From Flavobacteriales bacterium (GTDB lineage Bacteria; Bacteroidota; Bacteroidia; Flavobacteriales; CAJXXR01), in NCBI GenBank assembly GCA_025210805.1, contig JAOAQX010000011.1, positions 673-64,672 on the forward strand: a stretch of 64,000 nucleotides of DNA, in the 5' to 3' direction. The notes under the pieces are model-generated. The model saw only the letters and a list, made by a program, of their open reading frames with translations, did no database searches and was not told the origin of the DNA. How positions within the stretch are numbered: position 1 is the stretch's first letter; the number at the start of each line of letters is the position of its first letter. Shown here piece after piece: positions 15,613-56,660 of this stretch. A program made the position numbers and the translations under genes.

Positions 15613-18600
15613 TTATAGGTTTCTTACTTTTGTTTGATACCACACAGATGGCTGTGTGTTCAATTGTTCTAGAGAGTGATAAGCTCTTGGTGATTCTTTC
15701 AACTCTGCCACTTCGTGGTCTTTGTTCATTGAATCTCCAAACACCATTGCTCCTGTGTCACACGCTAAAGTACAAGCGGTTTGTGCTTCGTGATCCTTCA
15801 CTTGACGACCTGCTTTCTTGGCGTCTAGTTTTGTCTTTTGGATCATGTGTACACACATAGAACATTTTTCAATAACTCCTCTAGATCTTACAACTACATC
15901 TGGGTTCAATACCATTCTTGAGTATTCGTCATTCATTACGAAATCGAAATCATCATTTTGTGAGTATTGGAACCAGTTGAAACGTCTTACTTTGTAAGGA
16001 CAGTTGTTTGCACAATATCTTGTTCCGATACAACGGTTATAAGCCATGTGGTTCAACCCTTCACGTGAGTGTGAAGTTGCAGCTACTGGACATACATTCT
16101 CACATGGAGCATGATTACAGTGCTGACACATTGTTGGTTGGAATACCACTTGTGGAGTTTCTGAAGGAATTTCCATGTCTAAATACATGTCAATTACATC
16201 CATCAATCCATCTGTATTGGCATTTTCTTTTGTTGTATCAGATGAGTAATAACGGTCGATACGCAACCAGTGCATCTCACGTCCTACTCTTATTTCTTCT
16301 TTTCCTACAACTGGTACATTGTTTTCTGCATGACAAGCTACCACACAGGCTGCACAACCATTACATTTTGTAAGGTCGATGCTCAAATTCCAGAAATGTA
16401 CATCTCTTTCAAATTCTTGCCAAAGGGTTACTTTTTCTACATGCTTCTTTCCTTTATGAGTATCAAGGAAAATATGATCGGTTCCAGCAGTTGGGTCTTT
16501 TTGGAATTCAGCAAAAGTAGTTTCTTTGATGATTTCCGAACGATCCATAGCAGTTGAAGCAACTTGTGTAAGGGCAAATTCGTGACCTCCACTTGCTCCA
16601 GAAGTTTTTTCAATTTTGAAGTTATCGCTTGTCAATGAGAAGTTGTTGTACAACTCATAAGCATTGATTCCAAAATTAAATACTTCTTTACCTGCATGGG
16701 TTCTACCATATCCTACAGCCAATCCTACTGTACCTCTTGCTTGTCCTGGTTGAACAAGTACTGGTACTTTTTCAATAGTTGTAGATCCGTTGCTCAATGT
16801 TACATAAGCTCCGTTGATAGATCCGTTTGATTGCATTTCGTTTTCAAGTCCCCATTCTTTAGCATCTGAAGCGTTTACCGTAAGGTAGTTGTCCCAAGTT
16901 GCTTTAGAAATTGGATCTGGAAGTTCCTGTAACCAAGGGTTGTCAGCATGACTTCCGTTTCCGATACCAGACTTTGTATAAAGAGTCATTTCAAGTCCAG
17001 AAGCTTTTCCTGCATTAGCCTTAATCGCATTGGCAATAGCCATAAAATCAACAGCTGATGAAGTTGCCGTTTCTGGTGTTTCTGTTTCTGCTGCTACTAC
17101 TGGTGCTTCTTCTGTTGGAAGAACAGCTGCCGCTTTCGTATCTGCTAAGAAACCATCATGAAGACATTGATTCCAGCTTTGTCCGTTTAACAAATTGGTA
17201 TCCCAATAAGTTTTTAGGGCTGTGTAGGCATCAGTCTCTTCACCTAACCATTTCAATAATGATACATTCCATTGGCGTGTATCAAATAATGGTGAAATAG
17301 TAGGTTGGATTAATCCAATATAGTTTTTTGTTGGTTGTGCATCTCCCCAAGATTCAAACAAATGATTATCTGGAGTGATATACTCACACAAAGCTGTAGT
17401 TTCGTTTTCTTTTAATGTAAAAGAAACAGTGAGTGCTACTTTTTTAATAGCATCTGCAAATTTAAGGCTCGATGGAAGTGTGTAAGCTGGGTTTACATTG
17501 TGAAGCATTAAAGCTCCAACTTTTCCAGCGTTCATATCTTTGATAAGTTGAGCAACATCTGCGTCATTTCCTTGTCTTTGGAAAGATACATTGTCCATAT
17601 CAATAGTAGATCCATAAGAAGCAATCAATTCGTTGATCTTATTGACTACCATTTGGATATTTTTATCACTTGAACCAGAAACAACCAATGATTTCCCTTT
17701 GGCTACCCAAAGTTCATTGGCTACAGTTTTTAGTTGCTCATCAAGATTAGATTTTTTTGAACTGTAGGTTTGAGCACCTGCTTTTTGAGCAAGCATATTG
17801 TACAAGTTCAAAAGTAAAAGTCCTTCTTGTGATGGTTTGATTGGGAATCTATAATCGGCATTGGAACCTGTTAGAGACATATTTGCCTCAAACTGGTAAT
17901 GCTTATTCATTCTTCCTGACTCTGGATTTCTTCCTTTGGCATAATCGGCACCAAATTCATTTTCTGTCCAGTCTTGGATAAAATCGGCTCCGAAAGAAAC
18001 GATGATATCTGCTTTATCAAACTTATAAGTAGGTAAAACTCTTTTTCCAAACATTTCTTTGTTTGCATCTAGCATGGCACTGTAAGAAACAGCATCGTAG
18101 GTTACATGCGAAAAGTTTGTATAAGTTGTTTTGTATTTTTCAATAACTGCTTTTATTGATGGTGAGATGATTGTTGAAGTCATCAATACCATTCTTTTAT
18201 CGGCAGAAAGTGCTTTTAGTTTTGAAGATATTTCTTTGTCAACTGTTTCCCAGTTTGAGTCTTCTCCCCCTTTCATTGGGTTAATTACTCTTCCTGAATC
18301 ATACAAAGAAAGTAGTGATCCCATCACACGAGCCGAAAGACCTTTTCCGTAGGCTGCATCTGGGTTTGCTTTTAAGAAAATAGGACGACCTTCTCTGTTT
18401 TTTACTAAAACAGATGCGTAGTCATGTCCATCAAAGTAAGTAGATGCATACCAGTTGGCTTCTCCAGCAACTACTTCTTCTGGTTTTACAACATAAGGAA
18501 TTGCCTTGTAAACAGGAGCTTCACATGAAGCAATTGTTGCCGCAGCGGTACTAAATCCTACAAACTTCAAGAAATCACGTCTTGATGTTGATGATTCTTC

Positions 18601-27383: not shown

Positions 27384-27443
27384 GTTGTAGAACATCCCCC
27401 TTCAAAGCCCTTCAAAGGGGGCTTACAATAGTACTCTACAAAC
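27384..27443. terminator. nested hairpin between convergent genes (putative bidirectional terminator)
   Basis: Inner stem CCCCCTT…AAGGGGG (27396-27421) with duplicated CCTTCAAAG in the loop. Outer stem TTGTAGA…TCTACAA. Confidence 0.3.
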
Positions 27444-28086
27444 CTTTCATCAAAGCTTCCAAACGTTTTACTCGTTCTTCCAAACTTTCCTCTGCCACTT
27501 CGGCTTGCTCCTGAGCTATAGATATACTCAAAACAGCATTTATATAAACGGCATCATCTCTTAGTTCTTTCGAAAAAGTCAATTCATCTTCCGCATTTAA
27601 ATACAAACAAGCCGTGCTATCATCGTTCTGATGATAAGTACAAAAAAGCCAATCTCCAGACTGAAACTGCCCGAGAGAAGCTTCTAGCTTCAAAACAAAA
27701 TCAAAAGGAAAATGAGCAAAAGGGAAAACCATTTTTTTAGATTGCTCGATGCTCTCCTGCCAATCCGAAATGGAAATTCCATGTAATAAATTGGAAAAAA
27801 GCACGGGGGCTTCATTCTCTACCGAAATGGAAGATAGTCCATGCACCAATAAATCGTCGGTAATATTGGACAACTGATTAATAGTTACTTCCTGTGTCAA
27901 CAAAATATCGATAGAAATGCCAAAATGATTAGCAATACGTATCACCGTATCAATTTTCGGCATCGAACGATCTTCCTCATAAGCACCCAAAGTAGGTCTT
28001 TTGAGGTCAAAAAGCTCGGCAAAAGCCAATTGACTAAGATTTTTGGCCTTTCTAATTTTCTTTATGTTCTTACCAAAAGTTGACAT
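27436..28086 (-). CDS. XRE-family helix-turn-helix transcriptional regulator
   Basis: N-terminal HTH_3 pattern (IKKIRKAKNLSQLAFAELFDLKRPTLGAYEEDRSMPKIDTVIRIANHFGISIDILL). Confidence 0.7.
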   Translation of the reverse strand: MSTFGKNIKKIRKAKNLSQLAFAELFDLKRPTLGAYEEDRSMPKIDTVIRIANHFGISIDILLTQEVTINQLSNITDDLLVHGLSSISVENEAPVLFSNLLHGISISDWQESIEQSKKMVFPFAHFPFDFVLKLEASLGQFQSGDWLFCTYHQNDDSTACLYLNAEDELTFSKELRDDAVYINAVLSISIAQEQAEVAEESLEERVKRLEALMKGL

Positions 28087-28243
28087 TTTGCTAATTTTAT
28101 TTGCATAATTAAAAAATAGTTGTATATTTGAGCTATCAATATGAGCAAAGATAGTTTTATTTTAAATAAAAATGCACAAAAAGCTCATAAAAGTAGAATT
28201 ATAAACGCAAATAATATTTGCATAAACAAAAAAAAATAACGAA

Positions 28244-28564
28244 ATGATACTTACTACGACTCCTTCTATTGAAGGTAAACACATTGTACAATACCATGGG
28301 ATAGTGACGGGCGAAACCATCATTGGAGCCAATATATTCAAAGATTTCTTCGCCTCGATCCGAGATGTAGTTGGAGGAAGAAGCGGCTCTTATGAAAAAG
28401 TTTTGAGAGAAGCAAAAGACACTGCACTCAAAGAAATGGAAGAATTGGCAAGACAATTAGGTGCCAATGCTGTAGTGGGTATAGACCTCGACTACGAAAC
28501 TGTTGGAAATGGTGGTGGAATGCTGATGGTCACGGCAAGTGGAACAGCCGTTTCTATAAGATAA
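28244..28564 (+). CDS. YbjQ/UPF0145 family protein
   Basis: 106 aa. [13 protein letters not shown]…[14 protein letters not shown] is characteristic of YbjQ. Confidence 0.8.
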
Positions 28565-28730
28565 ACGGAAAACAGAATAGTGAGTTTGACGAATAATTGA
28601 AACTAATTTATAAAGCTGTATTAATTAACCTAATTGAGCATACTCAGATTAATTATCACTACTGAACAAAGAATAATTTCTGAATTATATTAAACTAAAT
28701 TTTTTCCCCACAAACTCACTTTATTACCAT

Positions 28731-28948
28731 GAGTTCTCGATACAATTTTTGATTCCATTGCATTCCATCAAAAACCACTCGAACTGACAAATCGAGATAC
28801 AATTTTTGACTCCACTGCATTCCATCAAAAACCACTTCCCGATGGGTCTCCCGAGATTATCGGGACTGAACTGACAGGGTTGTATCGAGTATGTCACTTC
28901 AAGTGATTTCTTTGGAGAGAAACGGAAAAGAAATTGTATCGAGAACAC
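28731..28948. repeat. cluster of hairpin-forming intergenic repeat units (family shared with 56287-56660)
   Basis: Two direct copies of TCGATACAATTTTTGA(T/C)TCCA(T/C)TGCATTCCATCAAAAACCACT… plus a reverse copy of GTTCTCGATACAATTTCTTTTCCG…CTCCAAAGAAATCACTTGAAG. The same units occur in the opposite orientation at 56.3-56.7 kb. Confidence 0.7.
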
Positions 28949-29035
28949 ACACAACAAAAATTGATTTAATTTTCTGTAAATTGAACTTTAAATCATACAA
29001 AATAACTACTTTAACAAAAATTTTTTAACCGAAAT

Positions 29036-29437
29036 ATGAAAAGCAATAGCTTCTTAAAAGTAAAAAATTACCTCCTTGATTTGAAATACGATATTTCTTA
29101 TCAAAATGAAAAAGATGGAATTCTGATGATACAGAATGAACCAGAGGGAATCAAAAATCTGCTCATAGGATTAGCAGATCCTATTTTGATTATGGAACAA
29201 TACCTCTGTACCATTCCTAGCCCTACGGCAGAAATCTATTCAGAATTGCTCAAAAAAAACCGAGACATGGTACATGGCGCCTTCGTGTTGGATGAATCTA
29301 AAACGAAGCTGATTTTTAGAGATACACTTCAGTTAGAAAATTTGGATCAAAACGAACTCGAAGCCTCCATCAACTCATTAAGTCTCCTACTAAGCGAGTA
29401 TTCCAATGAGATACTCAAGTATTCATCAAAAAAATAA
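29036..29437 (+). CDS. hypothetical soluble protein (possibly YbjN-like), first gene of the PspA-flotillin module
   Basis: 133 aa with no TM segment, 7 nt upstream of pspA. Confidence 0.5.
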   Translation: MKSNSFLKVKNYLLDLKYDISYQNEKDGILMIQNEPEGIKNLLIGLADPILIMEQYLCTIPSPTAEIYSELLKKNRDMVHGAFVLDESKTKLIFRDTLQLENLDQNELEASINSLSLLLSEYSNEILKYSSKK

Positions 29438-29443
29438 AAGATT

Positions 29444-30154
29444 ATGAATTTTTTTAAACGACTTTTCAAAATCGGGCAAGCAGAAGCCAACTCTGCCGTT
29501 GATAAAATGGAAGACCCGATAAAAATGACGGAACAAGGTATCCGTGATATGAAAGAAGAATTGGCAAAAAGCCTAGAAGCTCTTGCTGAAGTAAAAGCTA
29601 CGACAATAAGAGCCCATAAGGACTACGAAAGTTACCTTGCCAAAGCCGAGGAATACCAAACCAAAGCCTTACTCCTGCTCAAAAAAGCACAACAAGGCGA
29701 AATGGAAATGGCTGAAGCCGAAAATTTGGCTACTCAATCCTTAGTAAAAAAGGAACAGCAAACAGAACATGCCGAAGGTGCCAAAACAGAACATACCAAA
29801 CTTTCGCAATCTGTTTCTAATTTGGAAGGAAATATCAGCGAGCTAAGAAGCACCATCGAAAAATGGGAAAATGAACTCAAAACGCTTAAAGCTCGTGTAA
29901 AAGTAAGTAGTGCAACCAAAAAAATCAACAAAGAAATGGCAAGAATCGATCAAGATTCTACTGTTGAAATGTTAGAACGCATGAAAGAAAAAGTAGCTCA
30001 GGAAGAAGCCATGGCAGAAGCTTATGGTGACATTGCCGAAAAAGGAAAATCGATTGATAAAAAAATTGATAAAGCCATTGATACGCAAAAAGAATCGGCA
30101 AAAACTGAACTAGAAAAACTAAAAGATCAGTTAGGAATGACGGAAAATGAATAA
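29444..30154 (+). CDS. pspA: PspA/IM30 (Vipp1) family protein
   Basis: N-terminus MNFFKRLFKIGQAEANSAVDKMEDPIKMTEQGIRDMKEEL matches the PspA/IM30 start (FxRL…DKxEDPxKMxxQxIRDM). The whole 236 aa are a predicted coiled coil. Confidence 0.85.
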   Translation: MNFFKRLFKIGQAEANSAVDKMEDPIKMTEQGIRDMKEELAKSLEALAEVKATTIRAHKDYESYLAKAEEYQTKALLLLKKAQQGEMEMAEAENLATQSLVKKEQQTEHAEGAKTEHTKLSQSVSNLEGNISELRSTIEKWENELKTLKARVKVSSATKKINKEMARIDQDSTVEMLERMKEKVAQEEAMAEAYGDIAEKGKSIDKKIDKAIDTQKESAKTELEKLKDQLGMTENE

Positions 30155-30212
30155 GTTTACTGTTCAATAGTAAATTTTCCACAAAACAATACCTTAAAAC
30201 AAAGTAATAAAG

Positions 30213-30929
30213 ATGATCGATATTTTATTCTCCCCAGTCAATATGACGCTCACCATTTTACTGATAATTCTAATTTTATATTGGGTGATCTCTATGCTTA
30301 CGGGAACGGACTGGGATGTGGATGTAGATATCGACGTTGACGTAGATATTGATATAGATATTGATGCCGATATTAATCATCAAATTCCCACACAAGATTT
30401 TGAGTTTGGAGAACTTTCCAATACTGAGATTAACAAGGAAGATATTTTGTCCAAAAGACTTCCCAGAAAGCTCAAATGGTGGCAAATAGTACTCATTCAT
30501 TTCAATTTTGTGGGACTTCCTTTTATGTTCACTTTTACCTGTTGGATTTTCTTCTGGTGGTTTACCACGCTTTTATCCACCTATATCACGGGGAGTTATG
30601 ACAATTCCTTTGGATTCATTCTTTTCTTTATTCTGTTGATTCCTTCTTTGTATCTCACAAAATTGTTCACCATTCCTTTTAAAGCATTTTTTAAAAACAT
30701 CAACAAAGATGGTGACCAAGCCATCAATTTTGAAGGTAGGCTTGGACATATCAAATCGAGTATTTCGGGAGAAAAACTCGGCACGGCAGAACTCATCATT
30801 GAAGGCAACCCTTATATATTGAATGTAAAAGCATTCGAAGGACAGAAGATTGAATACGGACAACAAATTTTGGTCATTATTCAAGATTCCTCCAAAACTT
30901 TTTATTTAGTAAAACCATATTCCAATTAA
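30213..30929 (+). CDS. NfeD-like/YqiJ-like membrane protein with acidic (DV/DI)n repeat
   Basis: TM helices, a DWDVDVDIDVDVDIDIDIDADINH repeat, and a C-terminal OB-fold-like segment (GRLGHIKSSISGEKLGTAELIIEGNPYILNVKAFEGQKIEYGQQILVI) typical of NfeD partners of SPFH proteins. Confidence 0.6.
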   Translation: MIDILFSPVNMTLTILLIILILYWVISMLTGTDWDVDVDIDVDVDIDIDIDADINHQIPTQDFEFGELSNTEINKEDILSKRLPRKLKWWQIVLIHFNFVGLPFMFTFTCWIFFWWFTTLLSTYITGSYDNSFGFILFFILLIPSLYLTKLFTIPFKAFFKNINKDGDQAINFEGRLGHIKSSISGEKLGTAELIIEGNPYILNVKAFEGQKIEYGQQILVIIQDSSKTFYLVKPYSN

Positions 30930-30950
30930 TTAAACCTTAAAAATAACACT

Positions 30951-33050
30951 ATGACAGATGAAATTTTATCCATTGTAGGAATAGGAGTAGGAGTCATACT
31001 CTTTTTGGTGATTGTATATTTCGCCATTATCGCCATGTTCTACCGAAAAATCCCACAAGGAAAAGCCTTGGTGAGAACAGGTTTCGGGGGAACCAAAGTA
31101 GCTACGGACAAAGGACTTTATGTAGTTCCCGTATTCCACAAAGTAGAAATCATGGATATTTCGGTAAAAAAGATTGATATCGAACGTATTTCGTCGGATG
31201 GTCTTTTGTGTAAAGACAACCTGAGAGCGGATATCAAAGTAGCCTTTTTTGTAAGAGTAAACAATGAAGTGGAGCATATCAAAAAGGTAGCTCAAACCAT
31301 TGGGTGTACCCGTGCCTCAAGCCATGCTACTTTAGAAGCACTTTTTGAAGCCAAGTTCTCGGAAGCCTTAAAAACAGTAGGAAAAAAATTCGATTTTATT
31401 GAACTTTACGAAGCTCGTAGAGAGTTTAGAGACGAAATTATCAATATTATCGGAACCGATCTAAATGGATATATTTTAGATGATTGTGCCATCGATTATT
31501 TAGAACAAACTTCTATCGGACATCTAAAACCTGATAATATTTTGGATGCCGAGGGAATCAAAAAGATTACCGAGTTAACGGCTATTCAAAACAAAAAAGC
31601 CAATTTGATCAAAAGAGATGAAGAAAAAGTCATCCGCAAGCAAGATGTTGAAGCTCGTGAAGCTATTTTGGAACTCGACAAACAACTGGCTGAAAAAGAA
31701 GAACAACAGGCTCGTGAAATTGCCAATATTAAAGCTAGAGAACAAGCTGAAATAGACAAGGTAGCTTCAGAAGAAAGGCTTAAAGCAGAAAATGCTCGAA
31801 TTGCATCGGATGAGAAAATTGCTATTGCCGAAGAAAACAAAGATCGCCAAATCATTGTAGCTCAAAAAAACAAAGAACGTACAGACGCTGTCGAGACCGA
31901 AAGAGTGGAAAAAGACCGTGCTTTGGAAGCTACCGAAAGAGAACGCATAGTTACACTCGCTCAGATCGAGAAGGAAAAAGTAGTGGAAGTAGAAAAGAAA
32001 AATATCCAAGACGTAATCCGAGATCGTGTGGCGCTTGAAAAAGGAGTTGTAGAAGAACAAGAAAACATCAAAGACCTGGAAGCTTTTAAGGAAGCCGAAA
32101 GAGAAAAACAAGTAGCGATTACCCATGCAGAAAAAGCTGCCGAGGAAAATATGATTCAGCAAATAAAAGTAGCTGAGGCCGAAAAAGAAGCTTCGAAACA
32201 AAAAGCAGAACAACTGCAAATAGAAGCTCAGGCACAAAAAGATGCTGCCGTAAAAGAAGCAGATGCCCGTAAAACCATTGCCGAAGCGAGAGCCAAAGAA
32301 GAAGCTGCCATTGGTATTTCGGAAGCTCAAGTAATGCATGCCAAAGCAGAAGCCAGCGAAAGACAAGGATTTGTGGAAGCCAATGTAACAGAAAAACAAG
32401 CCTTAGCGGAAGCTATCGGAATTAAAGCCAAAGCCGATGCACTCAAGGAACAAGGTCTTGCAGAAGCAGAAGTGATTCGTCAAAAAGGAGAATCGGAGGC
32501 CGATATCATCAAACAAAAAGCCTTTGCAGAAGCCGTAGGAATAGACGAAAAAGCAGAAGCCATGAAGAAATTTGATGGTGTAGGTAGAGAACACGAAGAA
32601 TTTAAACTGAAACTGGATAAAGAACTTCAAGTGGACTTGGCACAAATTAATATTCAAAAAGAAATTGCTGATGCACAAGCTATGGTAATTGCCGAAGCCC
32701 TAAAAGCTGCTAATATTGATATTGTAGGTGGAGAGACCATGTTCTTTGACCAGATTATCGGGCAAGTAACTAGAGCCAAAGGATTCGATCGTTTGGTAGC
32801 ACATTCTGAAACCGTAACCGATGTAAAAGACGCTATTTTAGGTTCTGATGACGTAAAAGGAAATCTTTTAGAAAAAGTACGAGATATGGCAATCAAATAC
32901 GGAGTCTCTTCAGAAGATCTTAAAAACCTAAGTATTGCCCAGCTTATTTTTAAACTGCAAAGCGAAGCTTCTTCTGATGAAAAACAAGGAATCAGTGGAT
33001 TATTAGGATTAGCGAAAGCTTTAGGTTTGGACCAAAATAAATTGTCCTAA
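30951..33050 (+). CDS. flotillin family protein (SPFH/band-7 domain plus long E/A/K-rich coiled coil)
   Basis: N-terminal TM, SPFH core (…GFGGTKVATDKGLYVVPVFHKVEIMDISVKKIDIER…), then ~400 aa of EA-repeat coiled coil as in YqiK/FloT. Confidence 0.85.
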   Translation: MTDEILSIVGIGVGVILFLVIVYFAIIAMFYRKIPQGKALVRTGFGGTKVATDKGLYVVPVFHKVEIMDISVKKIDIERISSDGLLCKDNLRADIKVAFFVRVNNEVEHIKKVAQTIGCTRASSHATLEALFEAKFSEALKTVGKKFDFIELYEARREFRDEIINIIGTDLNGYILDDCAIDYLEQTSIGHLKPDNILDAEGIKKITELTAIQNKKANLIKRDEEKVIRKQDVEAREAILELDKQLAEKEEQQAREIANIKAREQAEIDKVASEERLKAENARIASDEKIAIAEENKDRQIIVAQKNKERTDAVETERVEKDRALEATERERIVTLAQIEKEKVVEVEKKNIQDVIRDRVALEKGVVEEQENIKDLEAFKEAEREKQVAITHAEKAAEENMIQQIKVAEAEKEASKQKAEQLQIEAQAQKDAAVKEADARKTIAEARAKEEAAIGISEAQVMHAKAEASERQGFVEANVTEKQALAEAIGIKAKADALKEQGLAEAEVIRQKGESEADIIKQKAFAEAVGIDEKAEAMKKFDGVGREHEEFKLKLDKELQVDLAQINIQKEIADAQAMVIAEALKAANIDIVGGETMFFDQIIGQVTRAKGFDRLVAHSETVTDVKDAILGSDDVKGNLLEKVRDMAIKYGVSSEDLKNLSIAQLIFKLQSEASSDEKQGISGLLGLAKALGLDQNKLS

Positions 33051-33098
33051 GCAAGAGAAATAGTTTAGTTTTTTCAACAAAATGGAGTTGTACCAAAA

Positions 33099-33539
33099 GT
33101 GATACATTGCTTTTGGTACACAAAACTCCTATCAGGAATTTTATCAATAAAAAGGATGTTTACTATCATCATATACAGCATATTGTCAGGATTATTTTCC
33201 TATTTTCTCTATATGCTTTTTAGCTCCAAGAATATTGGATGGAATGCAGATACTCTGCTCCCCATCTTAATTATGAGTGCGGTAAGCGTTTTGATGATCA
33301 GCCTTTTGTTTTCACAAGAATACCTACTTACAGATCAAACTTCTACCGAAACTAAAAAGCCCGTATTTATGGAGCGCATTGATTCTATTTCGTATATAAG
33401 TTCGAAAAAAGATTCAGCACTTCTCCCAACAGATTCCACTATTTCGGAAGCTTATCATCCGTCTTTTGACAAGCTCTTTATCACTCCAAGACGAGCCCAT
33501 TTTTTTACACAAGAAATCATCAAAAGTCAGATTAAATAA
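33099..33539 (+). CDS. small predicted membrane protein (uncertain)
   Basis: 146-aa ORF filling the flotillin-giant gap, with two hydrophobic helices. The annotated start lies inside a 10-bp-stem hairpin (33094-33123), so the real start may be the internal Met. Confidence 0.3.
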   Translation: MIHCFWYTKLLSGILSIKRMFTIIIYSILSGLFSYFLYMLFSSKNIGWNADTLLPILIMSAVSVLMISLLFSQEYLLTDQTSTETKKPVFMERIDSISYISSKKDSALLPTDSTISEAYHPSFDKLFITPRRAHFFTQEIIKSQIK

Positions 33540-33569
33540 ACCTACCCCACACTAGAAATACAATAATAT

Positions 33570-36500
33570 ATGAGCCTAGAAACTGGTACATACGAAATCA
33601 TACAAGGAAGATTAGAAAAGCAAAAAAAAGATCTATTAGAAAGACTGGAAAAGCTCAATAATTCCAGAAAAGAAGTCTTTGGTGCTGTAGATCTAAAAAT
33701 TATTGCCAATAAAAGGATCAATACGGATAATAATTGTATTGCTCGAGATATTATTTCTTTTGGAAATACCTGTCTTTTGGGGTATAATGTACATATAGGT
33801 CTGCGATCGCAAATTAAACTTTCCGATGTTTTTTCTGCCTACCAATTTGAGAATGGAAATTTTAAAGCCATTGATTTAACACTCATTAATGATGAGGCTT
33901 TTATTAATGATTTCGAGAACCTATACAAATACTATCGAGATACTATTTTTGCTCGTTTTGCCATTATTGGGAATTATGTCCACATGGTTTTTCAGATTTC
34001 GGATAAAATTCATGATATAAAAACCTTCAAATGGCTCTTGAATGACAATCAATTGCGTTATATCGATAATCGATCTGATTTTGAATATGGTTTTCCAAAC
34101 CAACATGAATTTGAATGGAAAAAACCAGTAAGAGAAATGCACCGATACGGTACACATGCCCATGTTTCTATTCTAGATAAAGTATTTGTAGAAACCATTG
34201 GTGGCGATCTTACGATAAAGATAGAAGACAATACCGACATTGGACAAGGGATCTTTTCGGAACCTGTAGAATTTCAAGATCAAACCCTAGATGATGCCGA
34301 GTATTTCTATGCAGATTTAGGTAATCTGATTATCCTAAAAATTAAACCCTACCAAGAAGATTTTCGATATTTTGTGTATAACCACAAAGTACAAGAAGTC
34401 TATAAAATAGACAGCATCAAAGATGCAACTGTTTTGCTTCCCGAAAATCAAGGAATTTTATTTCCAAACGGTTATTATCTTCAAACTGGAACTTACAAAC
34501 TCTTTGAAAAAAGCATTGAGCAGGTTAAGTTCTTAAAACGACTTGCAGCTCCCAATGGAGAGGATTTTATCTTTGTATTCTACGAAGAAGCCAAAGGGGA
34601 TTTTGTTTTGATATTTTATAATATTATCGATCAAGAAATAAAAACACCCATTATTTGCAACGGATACACCGTTTTTCCCGATGGAGAACTTTCTTATTTT
34701 AAAGCCGAAGAAGACGCTACCAAACACCATGTAATCCAAATTTGGCAAACGCCATTTACCAAGAAAACACTCGTTCAATCGGAACATTCAGATCGTTTGA
34801 TTTATAAAATTGGGAATAAAGACCTTGTAAAAGCCATGGCAGAAAGTAGGGAACTCATTGGCTTGCTCAATAAAGAGGATTCTTACGATGGGCTTTATGA
34901 TGATATTGCCAAGCTTTCTGGAGATATAGTTGATTCCTACTATTGGATACATGAGCCCGAAACCGCACAATTATCGGTTCCTTTATCAGAAATTCAAAAC
35001 ACGGCAAATACTGCCATAGACGAGTTTGAAAAAGTCATTCAACTCAAAAAACAGGCAAAAGAAAAAACCGACGCACTTTCTCAAGAAGCCAAACAACTTT
35101 TTGATGAAATAAAACACGCACGTTTTCAAGATATTCAGGAATTCGTGGAAGTTTTAGCTAATCTGAGATTACTCAGAGGAAATACAATTGGACTCAAAGA
35201 TATTCGCTACACCGAAAATGCCTTTATTGAAGCGCTAGAAAACGAAATCGTTGAAAAAACAGGACATATTTCTACTCGCTGTGTAGATTTCTTGATGAAT
35301 GCGGAAGCCTTGCTTCCTTACACCCAAGCCGTAAAAGAAAAAGAGGCAAATATTGAAGCCGTCAAAAAAGTAATTGATGGGAAAAAGCTTCACGAAGAAT
35401 TGGAAAAAATTAGTGCAGATCTAGAACTTCTCATTGATATTGTGAATAATTTGGAAATTGAAGATACGGCACATTCTACGCAAATAATAGATGGTATTTC
35501 GGTCATTTTTGCGGAACTCAACCGTGTAAAAGCCTCCTTAAAAAGAAGACTTTCTAATCTTGGGACTGCCGAAGCTCAAGCAGATTTTACGGCACAAATA
35601 AAACTTTTTGATCAGTCTGTGCTCAATGCTTTGGATCTTTCACAAACACCCGAAAAATGTGATGAATACCTCACTAAACTATCAGTTCAACTAGAAGAAA
35701 TAGAAGGGAAATTTGCCGAATATGACGAATTTGTCAACCATATTTTAGAAAAAAGAGAAGAAATTTATTCGGCATTCGAAACCCGAAAAAATGCCTTAAT
35801 TGAAAAACGCAACAAAAGATCTCTGACACTTTCCAACTCGGCAGATAGAATCTTGAAAGGCGTACGTAAGAAGGCCCAAACCTTTAGAACTGCCGAAGAA
35901 ATACACGCTTACTTTGCTGCCGATATTATGGTTGCCAAAATCCATGATATCATCCAAAACCTCAACGATCTGGAAGATTCTGGAAAAGCAGAACAAATTG
36001 CTTCCAAATTAAAGATAAGCAAAGAAGAAAGTCTCAGAAAACTTAAAGATAAACTAGAATTATACGAAGAAGGTGATCATATCATCCGTTTTGGAAATCA
36101 TCGTTTTGGGGTGAATCAACAACCGTTAGATTTAAGTATTGTAGAGCAAGATCACCAACTATTTTTTCATCTTTCTGGTTCAGACTTTTATGAGCAGGTG
36201 AAAGACGAAAATATCCGAAATCACCAATCTCTTTGGAATGCGGAATATGTTTCGGAAAACACACATGTTTACCGCAGTGAGTATTTAGCTTTTCAAATGC
36301 TAAAAAAATATACTTCGGAACAATTACTCAAACCAGATTTTCTAAAAAAAATCATCAAAGAATATACTTCAAAACACTATACCGAAGGATATACCAAAGG
36401 TGTGCACGATAGTGATGCCGAAACTTTAGTAACTGCCTTAGCGCAGATTCAACAGAGTATGGGATTGTTAAAATTCTCTCCTGAAATAAGAGGTAAAGCC

Positions 36501-38384
36501 TTATGGTTTTGGAAGAGTTTGAATCCTCAAAAACATCAAAGTTGGCAAGAAAAAATATCCGCTGCTCAGCAAGTGCTCCAACTGTTCCCAAAATCGGAAA
36601 ATTTCACTTTTCTAATTGATGAGCTAGAAGAAGCTGTAGCTCATTTCTATTCTGACTGGAAAGGATGGAAAACAACAGAGAACCGAACCATTGCCTTATA
36701 TCTTTTTGAGGAGTTTCAAAAAGAAGACTCAATCATAATCAGCCGAAAGGCAGAAAAAATCTATCAAGAATTTATAGCGCATCTCCAAAACAATCAAGCA
36801 AAAAGCACTTTTACTAAGCGTATAGAAAAGATGGAAAACTTGGAAGAGAAAGTTGCCTACTGCCAATATTGGTTATCGGCTTTCATACAAAATAGCCAAG
36901 ACCCAGATACACTCTTCTATATTTATGAAATTATCGCTCTAATTCTCTTCGATTTTTCTTCATTTACCCATGTCAATACAACTGAAACGCTAAAAGAAAT
37001 TGCTCTCATTGGAGCACATCCTTCGATAAAAAACGGGAGCTACACCTTAAATTATCATAGCTTCTTTGACAAACTCACCCGTTTTGAACAAGAATATATT
37101 CCGCAGTTTTTAGCTTTTAAAAATGCTAAACAAACCCTTTTACAAGAGAAAAAAGCGAGTTTAAAACTAAATGAATTTAAACCCAAAGTTTTGGCTTCGT
37201 TTGTTAGAAATAAACTTATAGACCAAGTATATCTTCCACTTTTTGGGAGCAATCTTGCCAAACAACTAGGTACCGTTGGCGACAACAAAAGAGTGGATCG
37301 GATGGGAATGCTCTTACTCATCTCTCCGCCTGGATACGGAAAAACGACCCTGATGGAATATATTGCCAACCGTATGGGGATGACTTTTATGAAAATAAAC
37401 GGACCCGCCATTGGGCATGAAGTTACTTCAGTGGATCCAATGTCTGCCAACAACTCGGCCGCCAGAGAAGAGCTCAAAAAACTTAATCTCGCCTTTGAAA
37501 TGGGAAATAATGTGATGCTTTACCTAGACGATATTCAGCATTGCAACCCAGAATTTTTACAAAAATTTATTTCCCTTGCCGACGGACAAAGAAAAATAGA
37601 AGGAGTCTATAATGGTCAACCTAAGACTTATGATTTTAGGGAGAAAAAATTCTGTATCATCATGGCAGGAAATCCTTATACCGAAAGTGGAGAAAAATTT
37701 CAAATTCCCGATATGCTCACCAACCGATCAGACATTTATAATCTGGGAGACATTATCGGAGAATCGGCACAGTTGTTTGAACTAAGTATGGTAGAAAATG
37801 CTTTGAGCTCAAATACTATTCTAAGGAATCTGAGTACACAAAGCATGGACGATCTGTACGAAATCATCCATTTTATTGAAGGAAACAAACAAGGAACCTT
37901 AAACCTAAAGGGCAACCACAGTAAGAGTGATATAGAAACCTATGTAGCTACCTTAGAAAAACTATTGAAGATAAGAGATATTGTTCTCCAAGTAAACAAA
38001 ACCTATATCGAATCGGCTTCTATGGATGATGCTTACCGTACCGAACCTTCTTTTAAACTCCAAGGGTCTTACCGAGACATGAATAAACTAGCCGAGAAAA
38101 TACTCCCCATCATGAATGCTAAAGAATTAGAAATATTAGTCAATACGCATTATGAAAATGAATCTCAAACTTTAACCTCTGCCTCAGAAGCCAATTTATT
38201 AAAGTATAAAGAACTCACGAAACAACTCACAGAAGATGAAATAGAAAGGTGGAAAAGCATCAAGCAAACGTTTAAAGAAAATCAATCGACTCAATCGGAT
38301 AGTTATATGCAATCACTTTTGGAAGAATTGGCAAAATTGACCGATGGTTTAGATGGGATAAAAGGTGTGCTGGGAAAAAGATAA
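33570..38384 (+). CDS. 1604-aa protein with C-terminal AAA+ ATPase domain of the AAA_5 (MoxR/dynein/McrB-like) class; N-terminal ~1250 aa of unknown function
   Basis: Walker A LLISPPGYGKTTLMEY (nt 37332-37349 encode GYGKTT). Walker B VMLYLDDIQH. Sensor-1 region FCIIMAGNPYTESGEKFQIPDMLTNRSDIY matches the MoxR-type pattern. Long predicted coiled-coil stretches in the middle. Uninterrupted ORF. Confidence 0.8.
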   Translation: MSLETGTYEIIQGRLEKQKKDLLERLEKLNNSRKEVFGAVDLKIIANKRINTDNNCIARDIISFGNTCLLGYNVHIGLRSQIKLSDVFSAYQFENGNFKAIDLTLINDEAFINDFENLYKYYRDTIFARFAIIGNYVHMVFQISDKIHDIKTFKWLLNDNQLRYIDNRSDFEYGFPNQHEFEWKKPVREMHRYGTHAHVSILDKVFVETIGGDLTIKIEDNTDIGQGIFSEPVEFQDQTLDDAEYFYADLGNLIILKIKPYQEDFRYFVYNHKVQEVYKIDSIKDATVLLPENQGILFPNGYYLQTGTYKLFEKSIEQVKFLKRLAAPNGEDFIFVFYEEAKGDFVLIFYNIIDQEIKTPIICNGYTVFPDGELSYFKAEEDATKHHVIQIWQTPFTKKTLVQSEHSDRLIYKIGNKDLVKAMAESRELIGLLNKEDSYDGLYDDIAKLSGDIVDSYYWIHEPETAQLSVPLSEIQNTANTAIDEFEKVIQLKKQAKEKTDALSQEAKQLFDEIKHARFQDIQEFVEVLANLRLLRGNTIGLKDIRYTENAFIEALENEIVEKTGHISTRCVDFLMNAEALLPYTQAVKEKEANIEAVKKVIDGKKLHEELEKISADLELLIDIVNNLEIEDTAHSTQIIDGISVIFAELNRVKASLKRRLSNLGTAEAQADFTAQIKLFDQSVLNALDLSQTPEKCDEYLTKLSVQLEEIEGKFAEYDEFVNHILEKREEIYSAFETRKNALIEKRNKRSLTLSNSADRILKGVRKKAQTFRTAEEIHAYFAADIMVAKIHDIIQNLNDLEDSGKAEQIASKLKISKEESLRKLKDKLELYEEGDHIIRFGNHRFGVNQQPLDLSIVEQDHQLFFHLSGSDFYEQVKDENIRNHQSLWNAEYVSENTHVYRSEYLAFQMLKKYTSEQLLKPDFLKKIIKEYTSKHYTEGYTKGVHDSDAETLVTALAQIQQSMGLLKFSPEIRGKALWFWKSLNPQKHQSWQEKISAAQQVLQLFPKSENFTFLIDELEEAVAHFYSDWKGWKTTENRTIALYLFEEFQKEDSIIISRKAEKIYQEFIAHLQNNQAKSTFTKRIEKMENLEEKVAYCQYWLSAFIQNSQDPDTLFYIYEIIALILFDFSSFTHVNTTETLKEIALIGAHPSIKNGSYTLNYHSFFDKLTRFEQEYIPQFLAFKNAKQTLLQEKKASLKLNEFKPKVLASFVRNKLIDQVYLPLFGSNLAKQLGTVGDNKRVDRMGMLLLISPPGYGKTTLMEYIANRMGMTFMKINGPAIGHEVTSVDPMSANNSAAREELKKLNLAFEMGNNVMLYLDDIQHCNPEFLQKFISLADGQRKIEGVYNGQPKTYDFREKKFCIIMAGNPYTESGEKFQIPDMLTNRSDIYNLGDIIGESAQLFELSMVENALSSNTILRNLSTQSMDDLYEIIHFIEGNKQGTLNLKGNHSKSDIETYVATLEKLLKIRDIVLQVNKTYIESASMDDAYRTEPSFKLQGSYRDMNKLAEKILPIMNAKELEILVNTHYENESQTLTSASEANLLKYKELTKQLTEDEIERWKSIKQTFKENQSTQSDSYMQSLLEELAKLTDGLDGIKGVLGKR

Positions 38385-38427: not shown

Positions 38428-38430
38428 CAC

Positions 38431-38792
38431 CACACGGGAAGGTTATCGCTTTTTGGCTTTGAGCCAAAAAGAGGAAAGTCCGGACTGCACAGAGCACCAT
38501 ACTTCCTAACGGGAAGGCTTCAGGAAACTGGAGACAGCTAGTGTTACAGAAAACAACCGCCAATTCTGTTGGTAAGGGTGAAAAGGTGAGGTAAGAGCTC
38601 ACCAGTGCATTATGCAAATAGTGTAGCTGAACAAACCTTATGGGCAGAAAGATCATGTAAACCGAAGCTTTGTAGCAATACAAAAAAAGTCTGCTCGGCT
38701 GATTCGGAGGGTAGATCGATGGATTCCAAAAGTGATTTTGGAACTAGAGAAATGATAATCTAGATACAGAATCCGGCTTATTACCCGTGTAT
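38431..38792 (+). ncRNA. rnpB: RNase P RNA (bacterial type A)
   Basis: Universally conserved P4 strand GAGGAAAGTCCGGACT at 38481-38496 and the complementary-strand element ACAGAATCCGGCTTA at 38766-38780. A P1 helix forms between ACACGGG (38433-38439) and CCCGTGT (38784-38790) and is followed by a T-run. Length ~360 nt. Confidence 0.85.
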
Positions 38793-38811
38793 TTTTTATA
38801 AACAAAGACAA

Positions 38812-56286: not shown

Positions 56287-56660
56287 ATATAATGTCCTTG
56301 GATGAAGTTCTCGATACAATTTCTTTTCCGCTTCCCTCCAAAGAAATCACTCGAACTGATACACTTGATAAAAATTGTATGGCTTTTGTCAGTTCGAGTG
56401 ATTTTTGATGGAATGCAATGGAGTCAAAAATTGTATCGAGAATGGCATTCGATAATCAAAAAATTTCCCGATAAAATTTCTTTTCCGTTGCCCTCCAAAG
56501 AAATCACTCGAACTGACATACTCGATACAACCCTGTCAGTTCGAGTGAATTTTCTGAAGAGTAACGAAAGAAAATTTTTATCGAGAACCCGCTTCTCTAC
56601 AAAGAAATCACTCGAACTGACATACTTGATAAAATTTCTTTCGGAGCGAAGTATTTTCCA
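56287..56660. repeat. cluster of hairpin-forming intergenic repeat units (same family as 28731-28948)
   Basis: Three direct copies of …TTTCTTTTCCG(C/T)T(T/G)CCCTCCAAAGAAATCACTCGAACTGA(C/T)A… and a reverse copy of the TCGATACAATTTTTGACTCCATTGCATTCCATCAAAAA unit. CACTCGAACTGACA / TGTCAGTTCGAGTG form inverted repeats. Confidence 0.7.

Follow-up and report, generated by a model that had tools for sequence, protein, structure and literature searches.

A candidate membrane module in a Flavobacteriales genome: a giant AAA+ protein encoded beside a flotillin and, in Bacteroidota, PspA

It is not settled how SPFH/flotillin assemblies form, open and are recycled, and the functions of bacterial flotillins are vague. 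The question is raised anew by a 64,000-nucleotide stretch of a Flavobacteriales genome (contig JAOAQX010000011.1, positions 673 to 64,672 of the forward strand), here called the window. An ORF scan found six tandem open reading frames (ORFs) on its plus strand, at 29036-38384. In order, they encode a CesT/Tir-like chaperone, a PspA/IM30 protein, a YqiJ/NfeD-like membrane protein, a flotillin, a small transmembrane (TM) protein and a 1604-residue AAA+ protein, here called the giant (Table 1). On which of these neighbours would the giant act? Comparison of related loci suggests that its conserved partner is the flotillin/NfeD pair and not PspA. A conserved, operon-encoded AAA+ partner is a direct experimental handle on flotillin assemblies, and the Bacteroidota version would moreover tie flotillin to PspA, a bacterial relative of ESCRT-III.

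Gene neighbourhoods of the giant

The gaps between the six ORFs are, in order, 6, 58, 21, 48 and 30 nucleotides (nt), and the RNase P RNA gene rnpB begins 45 nt 3′ of the stop codon of the giant. These coordinates confirm a preliminary description of the window, which had recognised six same-strand ORFs with short gaps bounded by rnpB. Its view of the cluster as an operon-like module is also borne out, by the common direction of the genes, the short gaps and the position of the flotillin gene in related loci.

The giant belongs to a large family: 4,481 proteins were among the candidates scored, their N-terminal 700 residues form 925 clusters at 50% identity, and at least 588 matches were found among species-representative genomes. 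The loci compared are the best 80 tblastn matches among these at least 588, plus one more, annotated with iterated profiles built from the window proteins. Flotillin and YqiJ-like genes were counted in the 65 loci with at least 3.5 kb of upstream DNA, which come from Bacteroidota, Planctomycetota, Verrucomicrobiota, Desulfobacterota, Kiritimatiellota and Bacillota. PspA, chaperone and regulator genes were counted in the 41 Bacteroidota loci with at least 6.5 kb of upstream DNA and in 23 loci of other phyla.

In 62 of the 65 loci the giant is preceded on its own strand by a flotillin gene, and in 61 by a YqiJ-like gene, an arrangement far beyond chance. Among the Bacteroidota loci, PspA is encoded upstream of the giant in 32 of 41 and a CesT-like chaperone in 31, and a divergent XRE regulator is present in 32. 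None of these three was found in the 23 loci from other phyla, and all-against-all clustering of the locus ORFs gave no other conserved gene family around the giant. The preliminary description had named consistent co-occurrence of the giant with pspA, flotillin and NfeD as a sign of a system; this holds for the last two, whereas pspA is a frequent neighbour in one phylum only. By gene content, then, the constant unit is the giant together with its YqiJ-like and flotillin neighbours. Bacteroidota have added PspA, its chaperone and the regulator, and Pseudomonas offers a single independent parallel to this accretion.

Annotated replicons of Pseudomonas, Streptomyces and Deinococcus carry this trio too, so that plasmid records add three more phyla. 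On pQBR103, a plasmid of Pseudomonas fluorescens SBW25 (locus L088, 85.4-97.6 kb), an operon of PspA, rhomboid, DUF2491, DUF350, DUF1190 and glutathionylspermidine-synthase genes runs straight into the trio, whose three genes are labelled there as hypothetical (217 residues), SPFH and 'DNA repair ATPase'. The PspA gene is some 4 kb from the trio, on its upstream side. A PspA system has thus been joined to the trio a second time, independently, and in a host that is genetically tractable. In another locus (L022), from a Bacteroidota metagenome-assembled genome without the upstream chaperone-PspA pair, the giant is closely followed downstream by a PspA homologue on the other strand (15964-16695, minus strand).

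The preliminary description held that the giant ATPase had not been noted before as a partner of PspA and flotillin. This proved wrong. By comparative genomics, Ravi et al. (mSystems 2024, PMC11237479; bioRxiv 2020) described an operon of CesT/Tir-PspA, YqiJ/YuaF, band-7/flotillin and a β-propeller/coiled-coil AAA+ protein. Their Table S3 lists this context with a divergent 'cHTH+Protease' gene in Dokdonia donghaensis (ANH61663.1). They also noted shorter flotillin and YqiJ operons, with or without the AAA+ gene, outside Bacteroidota, and they summarise the PspA-PspF system of Escherichia coli (PMC11237479). The window has the same genes in the same order, with all five families co-directional and a divergent helix-turn-helix (HTH) regulator. 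The giant of the window shares 57-58% identity with its Dokdonia homologues, and the shorter non-Bacteroidota operons were recovered here too. Unlike the published operon, the window adds a YbjQ gene, a diverged 2-TM bPH-like gene and a repeat element. The association itself is thus not new: Ravi et al. reached the same operon definition independently, and the window locus adds one more member to a system described by comparative genomics. Their description has neither counts of synteny nor a motif analysis of the ATPase nor structure models. The present comparison supplies the synteny counts, shows the constant partner to be flotillin and not PspA, and adds data on motifs and fold.

The proteins of the constant unit

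Beyond DUF3686, DUF7902 and AAA, the giant has no Pfam match; among the domains absent are MIT, Sigma54_activat, HTH, DNA-binding, nuclease and protease domains. In AlphaFold models an N-terminal helix is followed by a β-rich domain (residues 58-380), about 400 residues of long helices, a mixed helical and β region, the AAA+ core and a helical C-terminal region. The closest PDB structures to the β-rich domain found by Foldseek are propellers: the WD40 domain of DCAF1 (E 5.5e-5, probability 1.00), prolyl oligopeptidase, tricorn and kelch proteins. With segments flagged as hydrophobic above a 19-residue Kyte-Doolittle mean of 1.6, the giant reaches at most 1.61, at residue 1115, where the chain is helical and conservation poor. 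By hydropathy mean alone the protein would therefore have no clear membrane segment, its peak lying right at the cut-off.

The AAA+ core is the best-conserved stretch of the giant (mean top-residue frequency 0.69-0.77). Motifs were scored in 67 diverse homologues. Walker A, the sensor-1 residue N1368 and the arginines R1386, R1490 and R1502 are kept in 66-67 of the 67. Walker B (residues 1316-1324) reads hhhhDDIQH instead of ending in DE in 66 of them. Degenerate catalytic residues, which the preliminary description had named as a possible objection, were thus not found, and the domain appears to be under strong constraint. The same DDIQ occurs in Walker B of E. coli DnaA (LLIDDIQF). Since DnaA is a working AAA+ protein, ATPase activity of the giant is plausible; by the same analogy it may be a slow or regulated hydrolase.

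The dynein/MoxR-class assignment of this domain in the preliminary description did not hold. In hhalign comparisons the AAA+ core matched RuvB with a probability of 94%, FtsH with 78% and the MoxR protein RavA with 7.5%, and clustering of neighbours across loci revealed no conserved VWA partner gene near the giant. The RuvB similarity is limited to the core between Walker A and Walker B, and the FtsH match is weak and lies around Walker A. VAT/p97-type proteins likewise match around Walker A in a PDB sequence search, and the Pfam AAA_5 domain match passes its cut-off (35.3 against 22 bits). Foldseek did not single out an AAA+ clade, as RuvB, ClpA, NorQ, Rubisco activase, p97 and MCM all matched at E ~1e-3 with low TM-scores.

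Single-sequence searches of ORF3 and ORF4 against Pfam and the PDB gave nothing usable. Both proteins were identified by family profiles built from the related loci, and the labels that they had received in the preliminary description were upheld. The ORF4 profile (alignment A2) matches E. coli YqiK by hhalign with a probability of 100% (E 2.4e-40, residues 21-435) and, weakly, QmcA (8z5g). Pfam Band_7 (PF01145) gave no match to ORF4 at E 0.1 and matched one of 26 family members, at 2.6e-4. The database name of ORF4 homologues is 'flotillin family protein'. On the profile-profile result, ORF4 is assigned to a divergent flotillin subfamily. Flotillins linked to the giant are 640-720 residues long with a distinct conserved C-terminal part, and ORF4 is 38% identical over 590 residues to the SPFH protein adjoining the giant on pQBR103. 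By these comparisons the giant-linked flotillins form a distinct long subfamily that extends from Flavobacteriales to Pseudomonas.

The ORF3 family profile (alignment A3) matches E. coli YqiJ over its full length (hhalign probability 95.7%, E 8.6e-9). Through the C-terminal domain of ORF3 it also matches the soluble domain of YuaF (PDB 2k14, E 0.0084). ORF3 alone has no Pfam match; YqiJ_N is matched by 9 of 25 family members and NfeD by 3 of 25. The protein is thus predicted to have a YqiJ-type N-terminal membrane region and a C-terminal NfeD domain, as is expected of the YqiJ/NfeD type. After the first hydrophobic segment, YqiJ-like proteins carry an alternating-Asp run, DxDxDxD (residues ~33-55 of ORF3; alignment A3), which varies in length and was found in every phylum sampled. 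As related PspA operons are linked to polyamine genes, it may be a cation- or polyamine-binding loop.

The pair encoded by ORF3 and ORF4 is homologous to E. coli YqiJ-YqiK, with the NfeD-type gene first and the flotillin gene second, and the YuaF match of ORF3 recalls YuaF-FloT of Bacillus subtilis. Unlike in the window, no giant follows yqiK in E. coli. YqiK moreover aligns with the giant-linked flotillins over their SPFH and coiled-coil part only. Because E. coli YqiJK exists without a giant and aligns over that part only, the giant would depend on the flotillin pair and not the reverse.

What the giant may act on

The gene content, family identities, synteny and motif conservation described above come directly from the comparisons. 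In the reading that we favour as the most economical, and that we consider evenly poised between holding and failing, a conserved membrane module takes its Bacteroidota form here: the giant works on or at a flotillin/NfeD scaffold, with PspA as an added player in some lineages. Which proteins interact, in which direction the module acts and which stress induces it are points that we infer in the following mechanism. An XRE-type regulator would repress the operon until envelope stress occurs. The flotillin and its NfeD partner would build an oligomeric scaffold on the inner membrane, on which the giant would dock by its propeller and helical arm. Its regulated and probably slow ATP turnover, suggested by a Walker B ending in DD as in DnaA, would then assemble, remodel or release the scaffold or its clients. 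In Bacteroidota the chaperone would keep PspA soluble until delivery to the same membrane site, where PspA would form a second protective polymer.

SPFH assemblies that work with an AAA protein are exemplified by HflK/C-FtsH and by prohibitin with the m-AAA protease. The module would resemble both in combining an SPFH scaffold with an AAA-type ATPase at the membrane. Unlike FtsH, the giant has no protease domain or clear membrane anchor, its gene shares an operon with that of the SPFH protein, and its architecture is unrelated. A more specific proposal is that the giant is a dedicated factor that uses ATP to assemble or disassemble flotillin/NfeD (SPFH) scaffolds, doing for SPFH proteins what Vps4 does for ESCRT-III. 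In Bacteroidota it would be wired to chaperone-held PspA so that two membrane-protecting polymers meet at one damage site. We put this forward tentatively and would sooner expect it to fail than to hold. We know of no nucleotide-driven remodeller of flotillin assemblies in any organism.

Several points weigh against the favoured reading. The giant stands without an adjoining flotillin in 3 of the 65 loci (L034, L044 and L057), and the 80-locus sample is biased towards closer relatives. The two AlphaFold models of the giant are of moderate confidence (pLDDT, the predicted local distance difference test, 71.6 and 70.9; pTM, the predicted template modelling score, 0.35 and 0.52). The region equivalent to pore loop 1 has the consensus GPALGH; because it holds no aromatic residue, a threading or unfolding mechanism is doubtful. 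Upstream of the cluster, each of two Bacteroidota-type promoter-like motifs is weak on its own and no better than chance, the pattern having 7 matches in the window against 5.6 expected, i.e. no enrichment; only their position is suggestive. Co-transcription of the chaperone gene with the preceding YbjQ_1 gene (ybjQ), across a repeat-bearing gap of 470 nt, is uncertain. Finally, no experimental work on any member of the system was found in the literature searched.

The giant could instead be a Vps4-like ATPase that disassembles or remodels PspA polymers, with flotillin and NfeD as accessories. As in ESCRT-III/Vps4 of eukaryotes and CdvB/CdvC of archaea, a polymer of the PspA/ESCRT-III superfamily is encoded beside an AAA-type ATPase, here and in the 32 Bacteroidota loci in the same co-directional cluster, and a PspA operon abuts the trio on pQBR103 too. 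The Walker A region of the giant also resembles the classical AAA proteins VAT and p97, and ATP-dependent remodelling has been proposed for PspA-AAA+ associations generally (Ravi et al., PMC11237479). However, the analogy is weakened because PspA, a lineage-specific neighbour, is missing from 9 of the 41 Bacteroidota loci and from all 23 of other phyla, whereas flotillin and NfeD are nearly always there. In addition, the giant has neither the MIT domain nor the aromatic pore-loop motif, and its propeller, long helices and single AAA+ domain are unlike the architecture of Vps4 or CdvC. Such a role is possible in Bacteroidota but cannot be the general function of the family, and overall we regard this explanation as unlikely. 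The co-encoding of PspA and the giant in Bacteroidota could also mean that PspA regulates the AAA+ domain, so that membrane damage would titrate PspA away and free the ATPase at flotillin sites. The model for this would be E. coli, where PspA inhibits the AAA+ activator PspF and pspF lies divergently next to pspA. Here the case is one of analogy throughout: the giant has no σ54-activator features (no Pfam Sigma54_activat, no HTH), and most giants outside Bacteroidota have no linked PspA. We consider regulation of this kind decidedly improbable.

A further rival is an anti-phage or abortive-infection system that would damage or seal the membrane on infection; abortive infection was one suggestion of the preliminary description. 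In its favour, insertions vary in the slot between flotillin and giant (transposase-like, DUF559, GIY-YIG and small membrane ORFs), and a few family members lie on megaplasmids. Yet PADLOC-DB 2.0 gave no meaningful match, only scores of 15-19 bits to P-loop or coiled-coil regions. No homologue of the giant was found in 50,697 phage records, and the family occurs in just 13 of 72,556 plasmid records. The conserved neighbours of the giant include no defence genes, and the wider surroundings of the cluster are housekeeping genes (rnpB, YceG, M23 peptidase). The guanine-cytosine content of the cluster is native, at 35-37% like its flanks. The family is broad and, among Flavobacteriia genera, well conserved at 57-71% identity. 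An anti-phage function thus has very little probability. We give hardly any credence to the database name, by which the giant would be a DNA repair ATPase with incidental membrane neighbours. The Prokaryotic Genome Annotation Pipeline (PGAP) names it 'DNA repair ATPase' and Pfam describes DUF3686 as 'ATPase involved in DNA repair', and RuvB is the top-scoring AAA+ relative tested. Against this, that similarity is confined to the Walker A-Walker B core, Pfam detects no DNA-binding or nuclease domain, and DUF3686 is not mentioned in the literature searched. The giant is linked to flotillin/NfeD in nearly every locus whatever the phylum, and repair genes are not among its conserved neighbours. 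The name is contradicted by genomic context, and its correction would be of value for annotation.

Accessory genes and other features of the locus

Table 1. Positions of the genes, protein regions and other features in the window.
Feature	Position	Strand	Size or detail	Basis
XRE-type (HTH_3) transcription regulator, divergent	27436-28086	-	216 aa	Pfam HTH_3, 6.9e-14
Promoter-like motif TTTG...TAnnTTTG, Bacteroidota type (weak)	28100-28130	+	regulator/ybjQ intergenic region, back to back with the next	pattern search
Promoter-like motif TTTG...TAnnTTTG, Bacteroidota type (weak)	28146-28180	-	regulator/ybjQ intergenic region	pattern search
YbjQ_1 family gene	28244-28564	+	106 aa, between regulator and chaperone genes	Pfam PF01906, 2e-41
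CesT/Tir-like chaperone (ORF1)	29036-29437	+	133 aa	Pfam CesT_Tir_1 PF22550, 7.6e-53, 178.4 bits (cut-off 27)
PspA/IM30 (ORF2)	29444-30154	+	236 aa	Pfam PF04012, 8.9e-43
YqiJ/NfeD-like membrane protein (ORF3)	30213-30929	+	238 aa; TM1, acidic DxDxD loop, hydrophobic segments, C-terminal domain	profile comparisons
Long YqiK-type flotillin (ORF4)	30951-33050	+	699 aa; N-terminal hydrophobic segment, SPFH domain, Ala/Glu-rich coiled coil, conserved C-terminal region	profile comparisons
ORF5 as first listed	33099-33539	+	146 aa, GTG start	ORF scan
Lineage-specific 2-TM protein (ORF5), likely start Met20	33156-33539	+		alignments to relatives begin at Met20
DUF3686 giant (ORF6)	33570-38384	+	1604 aa	Pfam DUF3686 1.5e-175, DUF7902 3.6e-25, AAA_5 1.3e-8, AAA 1.5e-7
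Predicted β-propeller domain of the giant (DUF3686)	33630-34943	+	aa 21-458	AlphaFold strands aa 58-380, Foldseek
AAA+ ATPase core of the giant	37182-37769	+	aa ~1205-1400	motif conservation, Foldseek, hhalign
Walker A, GYGKT	37332-37346	+	aa 1255-1259	motif
Walker B, hhhhDD	37527-37532	+	ends D1320-D1321	motif
rnpB (RNase P RNA, class A)	38430-38796	+		260 bits

The 'small protein' of the preliminary description stands as a gene and can be named more closely: ORF1 is placed by its Pfam match in the CesT/Tir chaperone superfamily. The PspA/IM30 label of ORF2 was upheld, the match to PF04012 being nearly full length (residues 3-229, 146.9 bits against a cut-off of 33.9). ORF2 is 27% identical to E. 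coli PspA, the N-terminal helix region included (E 2e-12), and 24% identical to the E. coli paralogue YjfJ (E 2e-4). As in E. coli YjfI-YjfJ, a small chaperone-like gene directly precedes a gene of the PspA family. However, the window chaperone belongs to PF22550 and not to DUF2170, and it has no detectable similarity to YjfI. The polyamine-linked PspA operons come closest to the module on pQBR103, where a yjfJKLMC-like operon runs into the flotillin-giant trio. The window differs in that its PspA resembles E. coli PspA more than YjfJ and that it has no polyamine genes.

A homologue of the XRE-type regulator lies divergently upstream of the CesT-like/PspA pair in the 32 Bacteroidota loci that have one, so the module reaches further upstream than first stated and takes in this gene, a probable repressor. 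The C-terminal domain of the regulator is poorly conserved. A LexA-like autocleaving regulator was considered and rejected: there is no conserved Ser/Lys pair, and the C-terminal half has no Ser or Lys column at 80% conservation. The YbjQ_1 gene has the same position in the two closest relatives (L083 and L084), and in Aquimarina latercula (L004) it lies between the PspA and YqiJ-like genes. It is not present in the remaining loci examined and may be a lineage-specific recruit to the module.

The 'small TM ORF' of the preliminary description was likewise kept, with a later likely start at Met20 and a family relationship. In L083 and L084 this slot is occupied by 2-TM + bPH_4 proteins, to which ORF5 is 30-34% identical (E 9e-12 and 3e-21). 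Those proteins match bPH_4 (PF06713) and ORF5 does not; it is probably a diverged relative of them. No homologue was found in the 80 other loci (L001-L081). The idea that ORF5 is spurious for this reason was dropped once the bPH_4 homologues appeared in the same slot of the two closest relatives. The flotillin-giant spacer (33051-33569 in the window; L003-L072) is a variable slot with unrelated insertions in different genomes: insertion sequence IS200/REP-type transposase-like, DUF559, GIY-YIG, lipoprotein, small membrane and bPH_4 ORFs.

A scan of the window gave no convincing plus-strand terminator within the cluster, and the window has no transfer RNA genes. A scan for σ70 promoters and terminators was uninformative, its counts equalling those of shuffled controls and its promoter type being wrong for Bacteroidota. 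Long antisense ORFs within the flotillin and giant genes (e.g. 31767-32399, minus strand) recur across loci. They were rejected as genes, since their all-against-all clusters only mirror the conserved sense genes, as expected of shadow ORFs.

The 470-nt gap upstream of the chaperone gene, which measures 75-190 nt in the closest relatives, is accounted for by a repeat element of ~220 nt between ybjQ and the chaperone gene. This element (28730-28949) has 19-nt terminal inverted repeats, 95% complementary, around two 41-nt direct repeats. It resembles a dispersed repeat of the miniature inverted-repeat transposable element (MITE) or repetitive extragenic palindromic (REP) type. The 41-nt unit recurs with one mismatch 27 kb away, at 56397-56437 on the minus strand, where 0 occurrences are expected by chance.

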